This document shows positions 32,332 through 35,409 of a DNA stretch of 64,000 nt, piece after piece (position 1 is the first letter of the stretch; each line of letters opens with the position of its first letter). The notes beneath the pieces were generated by a model that had not been told where the DNA came from, did no database searches, and worked only from the letters and a program-made list of their open reading frames with translations. The position numbers and the translations under genes were made by a program. Where the stretch lies: the NCBI GenBank assembly GCA_051251995.1, contig JBPOFF010000001.1, forward strand, positions 355,190 to 419,189, written 5' to 3'. The stretch is from Sulfitobacter sp. GTDB lineage: Bacteria > Pseudomonadota > Alphaproteobacteria > Rhodobacterales > Rhodobacteraceae.

Positions 32332-32892
32332 TCACTTGAGCTTTGACAGTTTGTCCTGCAATTCAGCCAACTGCTTTTTGATCGCGTCCAGATCTTCGCT
32401 TTGATCAGGTTCTGCTTGTCGCTCAGCAGCGGACGTGGTGGTTTTGCCACCAGCGCCCCAACCGCCTGTCATCGCTTTCATGAACGCTTCTTGCTGCGCC
32501 TGCATCACACCCAAACCTGGCATCTTGGCCATTGGGTTCATCGACGTCATGTTTTCCATGACCCGTGCTTGCCCATCCCGCAGCATATCAAAAGAGGATT
32601 GCAAGAACTGCGGCACCACCGACACGTCACCTGACATATAGCTGCGCACCAGATCATTCAGCACAGCGACAGGCAAAACAGATTCGCCACGGCTTTCGTG
32701 CTCTGCAATAATTTGCAGCAGATATTGCCGGGTCAGATCATCGCCAGATTTTAGGTCTACAATCTGCACCTCGCGGCCATCGCGGATAAATCCGGAGATA
32801 TCCTCAAGCGTGACATAATCGCTGGTTTCAGTGTTATAGAGCCGCCGCGATGCATAGCGCTTGATCAGCAATGGTTTGACTGTGTCCGCCAC
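32332..32892 (-). CDS. phaR: Polyhydroxyalkanoate synthesis repressor
   Basis: IKRYASRRLYNTETSDYVTL, DLTRQYLLQII; GTG start after an AGGGAGG RBS. Confidence 0.97.
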   Translation of the reverse strand: MADTVKPLLIKRYASRRLYNTETSDYVTLEDISGFIRDGREVQIVDLKSGDDLTRQYLLQIIAEHESRGESVLPVAVLNDLVRSYMSGDVSVVPQFLQSSFDMLRDGQARVMENMTSMNPMAKMPGLGVMQAQQEAFMKAMTGGWGAGGKTTTSAAERQAEPDQSEDLDAIKKQLAELQDKLSKLK

Positions 32893-32915
32893 GGTTTTCC
32901 TCCCTCAGGTCTACG

Positions 32916-32928
32916 TGCTGCAGTGCAG
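32916..32928. promoter_or_regulatory. Putative PhaR box upstream of phaR
   Basis: TGCTGCAGTGCAG, whose reverse complement CTGCACTGCAGCA is identical to the box at 33558-33570. Confidence 0.65.
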
Positions 32929-32946
32929 CTTATGGCAGGCCCGCAC

Positions 32947-32979
32947 AAAAAGAAAGGGCAGGCTCAATGAGCCCGCCCT
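32947..32979 (-). terminator. Intrinsic terminator of phaP / the 3' UTR RNA
   Basis: AGGGCGGGCTC-ATT-GAGCCTGCCCT then TTCTTTTT on the minus strand. Confidence 0.85.
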
Positions 32980-33023
32980 GCCCTCACATCCAACAGGGAG
33001 GAAACGATGTGAGATCGGTCAAC
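32947..33023 (-). ncRNA. MmgR/suhB (alpha-r8)-like anti-SD sRNA in the phaP 3' UTR
   Basis: Minus strand: stem CTCACATC / GATGTGAG with loop GTTTCCTCCCTGTTG, followed directly by a terminator stem and U tract. Confidence 0.7.
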
Positions 33024-33467
33024 TTACTTGGATGTTGCTTTTTTCGCAGCAGCCGTAACGTCGTCTGTAGCTTTTTTAACAGCAGCTGTTGCGTCTGACT
33101 GCATGTCTTTGCCAGCAGACATCATCAATTCAACTGTGTCCATCTGAACTTTTTTCGCGATTTCAGCGAAAGCAGCCATATTTTCAACAGCAACTTCAGC
33201 AGAGGCAGATGCGAAATCTGTCATTGCTTTTGCGTAGTCAGCTGGCTCTGCCTTGGCTTTGGACATGTCGGCCAATTTCGCCAATGTGTCTTTGGTCCAT
33301 TTGCTAGAGACTTCAGCAGACTTTTCAGCAGCTGTCAGGGCAACGCCGGACAGTTTTTCGTTCAGTGCTGATGCTGTCTTGAAAGAACCTTCCATTGCGG
33401 AAGTGTCTACTGGGAAAGAGCCCATAACGTCTTTAAACATTGCGGCCATATCTGGTGTCTTTGTCAT
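33024..33467 (-). CDS. phaP: Phasin
   Basis: Ala/Lys-rich helical protein between phaC and phaR; start MTKTPD at 33467. Confidence 0.9.
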   Translation of the reverse strand: MTKTPDMAAMFKDVMGSFPVDTSAMEGSFKTASALNEKLSGVALTAAEKSAEVSSKWTKDTLAKLADMSKAKAEPADYAKAMTDFASASAEVAVENMAAFAEIAKKVQMDTVELMMSAGKDMQSDATAAVKKATDDVTAAAKKATSK

Positions 33468-33531
33468 CTTATCAATCCTTGATGCTTGGTGGAACATTCC
33501 ACCGTTCTGCTTCTGCAAAAGGATATAGATG

Positions 33532-33570
33532 CTGCACTGCGGCATTTCAAGTTTTTTCTGCACTGCAGCA
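33532..33570. promoter_or_regulatory. Two putative PhaR boxes upstream of phaP
   Basis: CTGCACTGCGGCA (33532-33544) and CTGCACTGCAGCA (33558-33570). Confidence 0.7.
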
Positions 33571-33603: not shown

Positions 33604-35409
33604 TCAAAGCCTTGCTTTCTTTGACACGTATTCGCCGGGCGCATCAGAGATTATTGTCCGTCCCTTATCACCAGGGAATCGGGCATTTATCTGGGTTCCA
33701 GACAGCTTTTTCAGCCAGCTTTCCCAACGCGGCCACCATGATCCTTCATGGAATTTAGCACCTTCCAGCCAATCGACGTGATCCAAATCCAGCGCCGTAT
33801 TGGTGTAGTGGCCATATTTGTTCTTGCTTGGCGGATTGACGATGCCCGCGATATGACCCGATTGGGTCATGATGAAGGTCTTGTTCTTGGATCCCATCTG
33901 CTGAACGCCTCGATAGCTATCTTTCCACGGCGCGATATGATCGGTTTCGCAGGCAATTGCACAGAGCGGCACGTCAATGTCGCCCAGTTCCAGATGATGC
34001 CCCATCAGGTCAAAACCGCCCTCGGCCAGTTCGTTGCGTTGGCACAACCCGCGCAAATACTGCATCGCCATCTTGGCAGGCAGGTTGGCCCCGTCACCAT
34101 TCCAATAGAGCAGATCAAAGGCGGGGGGGGTTTCCCCCATCATATAGCTTTTGACCGCAGGACCATAGACAAGGTCATTGGCACGCAAGAACGAAAAGGT
34201 CCGCGCCATGATCACTGAGGGCAGCACGCCCTTGTCCACGGTTTCCGCTTCAATCCCGTCGATGAAATCATCGGTCAGGAAAGGCTGAAATTCGCCTTGG
34301 TCAGAGAAATCAGTAAGCGCGGTAAAGAATGTTGCGGATTTGACCGACGTGTCGCCGCGTTGTTTAAGAAGGGACAGCGTCAACGACAGCGTTGTGCCCG
34401 CAATGCAATAGCCCACGGCGTTGACTTGTTTTTCGCCGGTGATCTCTTTGACCTCGTGGATCGCAGCTAGATATCCGTCTTCAACATAGTCTTCCATGCC
34501 GACATCGCGGTAGGTCGGATCGGGGTTCACCCAAGAGACCATGAACAAGGTATATCCCTGATCGACAACCCATTTCACATAGCTGTTCTGCGCTTTAAGA
34601 TCGAGAATGTAGTATTTGTTAATCCACGGCGGGAACACGATCAGCGGTGTCTTGTGCACTTTTTCCGTGGTCGGAGTATATTGGATCAGTTCGAACATCC
34701 GGTTGCGAAACACAACCTTGCCCGGCGTAGTGGCGATGTTGCGGCCCAATTCAAACGCGGTTTCATCAGCCAGTTTAACCACCATCTCGCCGTTGTTGGC
34801 CTCAAGATCAGAAATTAGGTTTTCAAGGCCCTTAACCAGACTTTCGCCTTCGGTCGCGACGGCACGCTCCAACGCGTCTGGGTTGGTGGCCAGAAAATTG
34901 GTCGGGCTCATCATGTCGATGATCTGCTGGCTGAAATGTCCCAACCGCTTCTTTTCGCGCGGACTCATGTCTGTGACATCTTCAACCGCCTGTTTCAGCG
35001 CATCAGCATTGATCAGATACTGCTGTTTGACGAAGTTAAAATAGGGATGAGACTGCCAAAGTGGGTTGGCAAAGCGACGGTCGCTGGCGGTCTTGTCTTC
35101 GGGGGCCTTCAACTCGCCTTTGGACAGTGCCTGCTGGGCTTCCATGAAATGAGTGACGGTGCGGGTCCAATACCCCATTTGATGCTCCATCAACTTGGCC
35201 GGGTTCTGCATCGCCTCGGCCATATAAGACTGCGTGGCCTTGGTGAACAACTCTTGATTAGGACCATCCAATGCCTGCTGATGTGTCTGGCGGTTGGTCA
35301 TCACCTGGGTCAGACGCTCCGTCAGTGCCTCTACTTTCTTCAAATTTTCGGCCATGCGGGTCAGGGCTGCCTCAGGAGTTACATCGCCTTGGGTGGTTTT
35401 AGTTGTCAT
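33604..35409 (-). CDS. phaC: Class I PHA synthase
   Basis: PPWINKYYILDL, GYCIAGT catalytic Cys, DHIAPW, SGHIAG, SWWP.W. Confidence 0.98.
   Translation of the reverse strand: MTTKTTQGDVTPEAALTRMAENLKKVEALTERLTQVMTNRQTHQQALDGPNQELFTKATQSYMAEAMQNPAKLMEHQMGYWTRTVTHFMEAQQALSKGELKAPEDKTASDRRFANPLWQSHPYFNFVKQQYLINADALKQAVEDVTDMSPREKKRLGHFSQQIIDMMSPTNFLATNPDALERAVATEGESLVKGLENLISDLEANNGEMVVKLADETAFELGRNIATTPGKVVFRNRMFELIQYTPTTEKVHKTPLIVFPPWINKYYILDLKAQNSYVKWVVDQGYTLFMVSWVNPDPTYRDVGMEDYVEDGYLAAIHEVKEITGEKQVNAVGYCIAGTTLSLTLSLLKQRGDTSVKSATFFTALTDFSDQGEFQPFLTDDFIDGIEAETVDKGVLPSVIMARTFSFLRANDLVYGPAVKSYMMGETPPAFDLLYWNGDGANLPAKMAMQYLRGLCQRNELAEGGFDLMGHHLELGDIDVPLCAIACETDHIAPWKDSYRGVQQMGSKNKTFIMTQSGHIAGIVNPPSKNKYGHYTNTALDLDHVDWLEGAKFHEGSWWPRWESWLKKLSGTQINARFPGDKGRTIISDAPGEYVSKKARL

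Follow-up and report, generated by a model that had tools for sequence, protein, structure and literature searches.

A covarying hairpin with an anti-Shine-Dalgarno loop in the 3' untranslated region of phasin mRNAs of Rhodobacteraceae

Across many Rhodobacteraceae genera, the 3' end of the phasin gene phaP is tied to a hairpin followed by a terminator, and the two form a real, covarying, single-copy module. We analysed this module in a 64-kb window (the whole stretch of DNA under study), where it lies between phaP and the repressor gene phaR, and in the genomes of related bacteria.

PHB granule control centres on phasin and PhaR. The link from PhaR to phasin levels is made in rhizobia by MmgR, a free-standing sRNA for which no direct target is known. 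Many marine Rhodobacteraceae genera have an RNA with an MmgR-like seed as a physical part of the phasin mRNA itself, and production of the RNA would be automatically coupled to the release of PhaR. The outcome of our analysis is a defined RNA family, with 49 aligned members and a covariance model, and a clear evolutionary contrast, with a stand-alone gene on one side and a module embedded in a 3' untranslated region (3'UTR) on the other. It leads to the hypothesis that carbon storage may be linked to how transporter genes, and possibly phaR too, are translated. Since the Roseobacter group is important in marine carbon cycling, a readout of PHB status that acts after transcription would matter for ecology as well as for mechanism.

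The phaP-phaR locus and its hairpin

The genes of the locus are the following.

35481, divergent: phaZ (ORF listing)
35409..33604, minus strand: phaC (window gene layout)
33024..33467, minus strand: phaP (phasin), 147 aa, with the stop codon TAA at 33026-33024 (ORF listing)
32332..32892, minus strand: phaR (PHB-responsive repressor), 186 aa, with a GTG start at 32892 (ORF listing)

Searches with Pfam identified the phaP product as Phasin_2 (27.1 bits for a cut-off of 24.9) and found PHB_acc_N (95.3 bits) and PHB_acc (29.8 bits) in the phaR product. Homologues of phaP in related loci are 60-92% identical (tblastn), and the position of the phaR GTG start is kept in close relatives. The spacer between the two genes is 131 nt long and holds the hairpin element. 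From the phaP TAA onward, the RNA runs through GUUGACCGAU, CUCACAUC, GUUUCCUCCCUGUUG and GAUGUGAG in this order, with the hairpin starting about 10 nt past the stop. The spacer contains the following features.

32942..33021, minus strand: whole conserved element, match to our covariance model R1 (73.8 bits, E=1.8e-16)
32983..33013, minus strand: hairpin H1, with an 8-bp stem (sequence and single-sequence fold)
33013..33006, minus strand: 5' arm of H1, CUCACAUC (sequence)
33005..32991, minus strand: loop of H1, GUUUCCUCCCUGUUG, 15 nt (sequence)
32995..33004, minus strand: anti-Shine-Dalgarno (anti-SD) decamer UUUCCUCCCU within the H1 loop, with the core CCUCCC (sequence)
32990..32983, minus strand: 3' arm of H1, GAUGUGAG (sequence)
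32946..32979, minus strand: intrinsic terminator of phaP, with an 11-pair G+C-rich stem, the loop AUU and the tail UUUCUUUUU (terminator scan)
32896..32905, minus strand: Shine-Dalgarno (SD) region of phaR, AGGGAGGAAA, at -13 to -4 of the gene (sequence)

When the sequence is folded on its own, the 8-bp stem of H1 forms and the loop is wholly unpaired. The terminator lies directly 3' of the hairpin, with its stem at 32979..32955 followed by UUCUUUUUGU (terminator scan). The decamer UUUCCUCCCU of the loop is the exact reverse complement of AGGGAGGAAA in the SD region of phaR. The direct reading of the window thus bears out what an earlier note on this DNA had described: an 8-bp hairpin, an anti-SD loop, a terminator and a match of 10 nt to the ribosome-binding site (RBS) of phaR. 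The same note had made the RNA a part of the phasin transcript, and this agrees with its closeness to the stop codon, with the lack of a promoter-like site, and with the sampled genome-wide matches, all of which follow phaP. Indeed, a promoter scan found no sigma-70-like promoter ahead of the hairpin on the minus strand, so that an own promoter for the hairpin is unsupported. The hairpin sits in the phaP 3'UTR, between the stop codon and the terminator of the mRNA itself, and it is conserved with its host gene.

Conservation and distribution in Rhodobacteraceae

We collected 80 phaR loci of Rhodobacteraceae and located phaP in 71 of them. The motif CCUCC occurs at most 70 nt past the phaP stop in 59 of 72 phaP loci (window included), and most of these sites are placed by single-sequence folds at the tip of a hairpin that is followed by a terminator. 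Nine loci have 1.2-2.1 kb between phaP and phaR, and in these it is phaP that the hairpin accompanies. A MAFFT alignment of 56 elements analysed with RNAalifold recovered the terminator alone, the arms of the hairpin being out of register. The covariance model R1 was built from 23 in-register sequences with a structure given by hand, and the remaining sequences were re-aligned to it. R1 matches 49 loci, with scores from 36.9 to 82.9 bits.

Pairing in the R1 alignment (n=49) is much above the shuffled expectation: 94.1% of the cells are paired, against 77.3% in shuffles, and none of 500 shuffles reaches the observed value. When the partners are slid along the alignment, the fraction of paired cells falls to 34-52%. 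Among the 49 homologues, the H1 helix is 89% paired with compensatory changes at seven of its eight pairs, and the terminator helix (helix 2) is 99% paired with compensatory changes at 8/8 pairs; these counts come from an alignment fitted to R1 and are hence biased toward the R1 structure. The independent single-sequence folds, as well as stems that differ visibly between loci, agree with the covariation figures.

Of the 49 aligned elements, 48 have the loop core CCUCCC while the stems differ, and the loop sequence 3' of it varies among relatives. The earlier note had presented the decamer as a conserved seed. The decamer is present in the window, but the full UUUCCUCCCU occurs in only about 7 of the 49 elements. 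A minority of loops carry instead the motif of the cuckoo RNAs, CCUCCUCCC (e.g. in L014, L032, L050 and L064).

We then searched whole genomes with R1. The genome of the window has a single strong match (73.8 bits; the runner-up has 23.6). In a survey of the family with one genome per genus and a cut-off of E<=1e-5, 89 of 201 genomes have a match (about 44% of the sampled genera), nearly always one per genome. All of 20 sampled matches lie directly behind a phaP homologue. The next gene is phaR in 14 of these, and the other six have no phaR within about 900 bp. Outside the family, a class-wide search returned matches of at most 40 bits that are plain terminators with no CCUCCC and no phaP nearby, which rules out a spread beyond the family. 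In two loci with tandem phaP paralogues, L103 (G122:C3:482600-484400) and L108 (G188:C3:408800-410600), the R1 match lies behind the first (upstream) copy.

Within its own genus, the element is kept in only 21 of 81 species and is therefore dispensable. Ten loci (L010, L012, L016, L017, L020, L021, L023, L027, L030 and L033), from species labelled Sulfitobacter or Roseobacter, have the same terminator, but the hairpin that precedes it after the phaP stop is a different one and lacks CCUCCC. These hairpins, together with the retention in 21 of 81 species, indicate that the element was lost or replaced repeatedly.

Alternatively, the hairpin might be a structural 3' end without pairing targets. 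It would then protect the mRNA from exonucleases or aid termination, and its C-rich loop would be a protein site or an accident of composition. The hairpin immediately precedes the terminator of phaP, for which high expression is expected, and this position fits the explanation, as do the other hairpins found at the same place (L010, L012, L016, L017, L020, L030): since many species of the genus have a hairpin without CCUCCC, a hairpin alone is tolerated there. However, stability alone leaves unexplained why CCUCCC is invariant (48/49) in elements whose stems are free to change, and why it is identical to the seed motif of known anti-SD sRNAs. We thus regard a purely structural role as very unlikely.

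Relation to known anti-SD RNAs

Neither the window nor any of 20 related loci gave an Rfam match at the gathering level. With permissive settings, a 1-kb search gave suhB/MmgR with 17.5 bits (E=0.83; threshold 41), and SorX and SorY were retrieved with 19.2 bits (threshold 46.6) and 20.3 bits (threshold 111), respectively; the L20 leader also gave a sub-threshold match. The Rfam suhB/MmgR model, proposed earlier as a check on the identity of the RNA, hence leaves the phaP element well below its threshold. When the suhB model is run against the genome of the window, the element ranks 12th and eleven places score higher, the best with 27.9 bits. Because the phaP element fails every Rfam threshold, its homology to known anti-SD sRNAs is unproven. 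The best-scoring place of that genome, which is also below the threshold of 41 bits, lies outside the window (G000:C23:25111-25201, plus strand); with the sequence ACUUCCUCCCUGUCAGAC ahead of a terminator, it may be a stand-alone sRNA of the alpha-r8 kind.

The closest comparison is with the alpha-r8 family (Rfam RF00519), which includes MmgR/SuhB of Sinorhizobium meliloti and RNAs of Sphingopyxis as well as SisA-D of Caulobacter. This family is defined by UUUCCUCCCU and a Rho-independent terminator (PMC12559287), and the same source supports the earlier note in assigning the decamer to alpha-r8/MmgR, whose defining core it is. The phaP element resembles these RNAs in that an unpaired UUUCCUCCCU is followed by a terminator, in that the window shares the 12-mer CGUUUCCUCCCU with the consensus of the Rfam suhB alignment, and in its link to PHB and phasin biology with predicted control by PhaR. 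It differs from them in several ways. A strong 8-bp stem closes the loop that holds its motif, whereas the alpha-r8 motif is single-stranded after a weak hairpin (PMC12559287). It is embedded in a 3'UTR with no own promoter found, whereas MmgR is a free-standing trans-encoded gene. Finally, unlike alpha-r8, the phaP element keeps only the core CCUCCC among relatives, and not the decamer. A further hallmark of alpha-r8/MmgR is Hfq-dependent base pairing that limits the accumulation of PHB.

SorX (RF02784), like SorY an RNA of Rhodobacter sphaeroides, is cut from the 3'UTR of an mRNA. It shares with the phaP element the 13-mer CCUCCCUGUUGGA followed by a terminator. Yet the motif of SorX and SorY is not enclosed in a hairpin as that of phaP is, the host gene is another one, SorX responds to oxidative stress whereas control by PhaR is predicted here, and the loop sequence after CCUCCC varies among the relatives of the phaP element. 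The genome of the window also has two true SorX-family genes, both above the Rfam threshold (75.5 and 55.6 bits) and both outside the window.

G000:C24:193012-193087, plus strand: SorX-family gene (Rfam)
G000:C1:72100-72162, plus strand: SorX-family gene (Rfam)

Both carry CCUCCCUGUUGGAC directly before their terminator, and have the 13-mer CCUCCCUGUUGGA in common with the phaP loop.

The cuckoo RNAs, here CcsR1-4/RSs0680 and NfeR1/alpha-r14, are hairpins in which the stems undergo compensatory changes and the anti-SD motif of the loop is kept (PMC4615179). The phaP element evolves in the same manner, with varying stems and a constant loop, and several relatives hold the exact CCUCCUCCC. Moreover, the CcsR RNAs are co-transcribed with an upstream ORF, as the phaP element would be. 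By definition, however, a cuckoo RNA has two to four hairpins side by side, all with CCUCCUCCC in the loop (PMC4615179), whereas the phaP element is a single hairpin, mostly with CCUCCC, and the gene that it follows is phaP, not a DUF1127 gene.

OppZ and CarZ of Vibrio are sRNAs that derive from a 3'UTR and exert feedback within their own regulon (PMC7398697). As in these cases, the RNA described here shares the terminator of the mRNA, which would make it co-regulated with the upstream gene, and it may act within the same pathway. The candidate feedback target differs, being a neighbouring repressor gene and not the host operon, and both processing and targets are predictions in the case of phaP. 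In the literature that we searched, which did not cover the 2016 phylogenetic survey of alpha-r8, we found no description of a phaP 3'UTR RNA. The element represents an unannotated RNA family that escapes every Rfam model at threshold, and it falls outside the definitions of alpha-r8, SorX and the cuckoo RNAs.

Candidate functions of the loop

The regulation of the locus bears on what the loop may do. PhaR palindromes of the CTGC-N3-GCAG type have been described, and mmgR of S. meliloti is repressed by PhaR/AniA via a palindrome in its promoter (PMC12542648). The window has three operator-like palindromes of this type.

32917..32929: predicted PhaR box GCTGCAGTGCAGC (CTGC-N3-GCAG), between the terminator and the phaR RBS, exact pattern match
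33531-33543: predicted PhaR box GCTGCACTGCGGC, upstream of phaP, one mismatch
33557-33569: predicted PhaR box TCTGCACTGCAGC, upstream of phaP, one mismatch

These are the only matches with at most one mismatch in the 64 kb of the window; when two mismatches are allowed, matches are not above chance. The palindrome GCTGCAGTGCAGC overlaps a candidate -10 element, TAAGCT (32932..32927), and most relatives have it, as CTAAGCTGCAnTGCAGC, ahead of phaR. The repression of phaP by PhaR, as supposed in the earlier note, is consistent with the candidate boxes ahead of phaP, and phaR has one as well. The two boxes upstream of phaP would place phaP, together with its 3'UTR RNA, under PhaR control.

We consider it fairly probable that the element is a PhaR-controlled anti-SD riboregulator in the 3'UTR of the phasin mRNA, with a mode of action like that of MmgR/alpha-r8, SorX/SorY and the cuckoo (CcsR) RNAs. 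PHB granules would titrate PhaR away, the phaP promoter with its two candidate boxes would fire, and the module would be made. The exposed loop would then pair with strong RBSs of the GGGAGG type and lower their translation. The active form may be the loop within the abundant phasin mRNA, or a 3'-end fragment of about 70 nt freed by processing.

Several genes of the genome have RBSs that match the loop as well as, or better than, that of phaR, with the caveat that any anti-SD sequence matches any strong SD. They include a SoxA-type cytochrome gene (12 nt), three genes for periplasmic solute-binding proteins (DctP, SBP_bac_1 and Peripla_BP_6) and a gene for a biotin-lipoyl (biotin-carrier-like) protein. 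The longest of these matches lies outside the window.

G000:C3:125242, minus strand: RBS of a SoxA/TsdA-type cytochrome c gene, CAGGGAGGAAAC, a perfect complement of the loop over 12 nt

The predicted target set is of the kind known for anti-SD sRNAs. We also considered phaP as a target of its own 3'UTR and rejected it: the conserved SD of phaP, AAAGGA, pairs over about 4.5 nt (-7 kcal/mol) and shows no cognate excess.

The neighbouring phaR is the candidate put forward by the earlier note. In the window, the duplex between the loop and the phaR SD spans 10 nt and has an energy of -17.6 kcal/mol. The decamer or its complement occurs eight times in the 4.24-Mb genome. Seven of these occurrences are RBSs reading AGGGAGGAAA, which is why phaR is among the seven best sites of the genome by contiguous match; the phaP loop is the sole occurrence in the anti-SD sense. 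If phaR is a target in this lineage, which is plausible, the RNA would damp the synthesis of PhaR while phasin is made.

One may go further and suppose that the phaP 3'UTR RNA is a dedicated trans repressor of the phaR mRNA made from its own promoter and that, with PhaR repressing phaP, the two genes form a double-negative switch for granule formation. The perfect match of 10 nt over the phaR SD, one of only seven such RBSs in the genome, is in line with this proposal, and the SD of phaP is not complementary to the loop, so that the RNA would spare phaP. The closest relatives give further hints. In G111, of the same genus, the match extends to 12 nt (UUCCUCCCAGAU to AUCUGGGAGGAA), and the pair adjoining the core, U:A in the window, is A:U there, a change on both sides. 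The match is 9 nt long in L009, but only 5 nt long in the next relative, L011, and extended pairing is thus found only in the three closest genomes (10 nt in the window, 12 in G111 and 9 in L009). Within the genus, cognate pairs have a mean match of 7.06 nt and swapped pairs one of 6.71 nt (p=0.051), and 2 of 17 cognate pairs reach a match of at least 10 nt, compared with 1.5% of the swapped pairs (P=0.025). This signal is suggestive only, because the genomes with long matches are close relatives and thus non-independent.

These hints vanish at the level of the family. Using corrected start sites, we compared the longest complement between the loop and the phaR TIR in cognate and in swapped pairs, and found 5.88 nt in both (p=0.56), with no cognate excess in energy either (p=0.86). 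The family-wide complementarity between the loop and phaR is a generic match of anti-SD to SD, and the co-conservation of loop and phaR RBS expected under the earlier proposal is absent at this level, which had been set beforehand as a refuting outcome. Three other observations point the same way. Loci that carry the element and loci that lack it show no significant difference in the type of their phaR SD (Fisher p 0.1-0.65). The element also persists in loci whose phaR lies at a distance of 1.2-2.1 kb, and in others that have none within about 900 bp. Finally, about 212 sites of the genome pair with the loop as well as phaR does, or better, in terms of duplex energy.

What stands of the double-negative switch is hence the extended pairing in the three closest genomes, and what falls is its generality, given the lack of a family-wide signal and the retention of the element without a nearby phaR. 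A switch specific to phaR is weakly supported, and is a possibility limited to a lineage rather than a conserved function; phaR is not the conserved reason for the existence of the element. We judge the dedicated trans repression of phaR to be unlikely. We are similarly doubtful that, in the Sulfitobacter-like lineage, the phasin 3'UTR was recruited as a dedicated feedback arm on PhaR, with the seed and the phaR RBS co-evolving and mutual repression acting as a toggle that commits the cell to granules.

The loop might also act on phaR in cis. Upon read-through of the terminator, it would pair with the phaR SD about 90 nt downstream and work as an insulator against the strong phaP promoter, leaving phaR to be translated only from transcripts of its own autoregulated promoter. 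Such pairing requires just a generic match of 5-8 nt, which nearly all loci have, and in the minimum-energy fold of the whole intergenic region (-61.6 kcal/mol, z=-2.85) UUUCCUCCCU and AGGGAGGAAA do pair, enclosing the terminator. The same long-range pairing is predicted in 13 of the 32 loci where phaR is adjacent, but not in the other 19, and the terminator that would have to be read through is strong and conserved. Because the element persists behind phaP when no phaR lies downstream, insulation in cis is not its general function, and we hold this explanation to be highly improbable. The riboregulator that acts on strong RBSs in trans is the reading that we retain.

The region between the terminator and phaR has a second conserved signal. 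The U-tract of the terminator overlaps the motif CTTTCTTTTT, which is conserved upstream of phaR even in loci without the terminator. On the minus strand, positions 32940-32958 read CCCUUUCUUUUUGUGCGGG and include CTTTCTTTTT(G). In loci that have no terminator stem ahead of phaR (e.g. L015, L019, L029, L048, L052 and L054), CTTTCTTTTT(G) lies about 15-17 nt upstream of CTAAGCTGCAnTGCAGC. The motif probably also serves as the -35 or upstream element of an autoregulated phaR promoter, whose -10 the PhaR palindrome would cover. An upstream region of phaR of the Rhodobacteraceae type is also found in L082 (RFIO01000130.1), a 1.3-kb contig labelled 'Deltaproteobacteria bacterium' whose PhaR is 73% identical to the protein of the window; this label is probably a binning error in that MAG.
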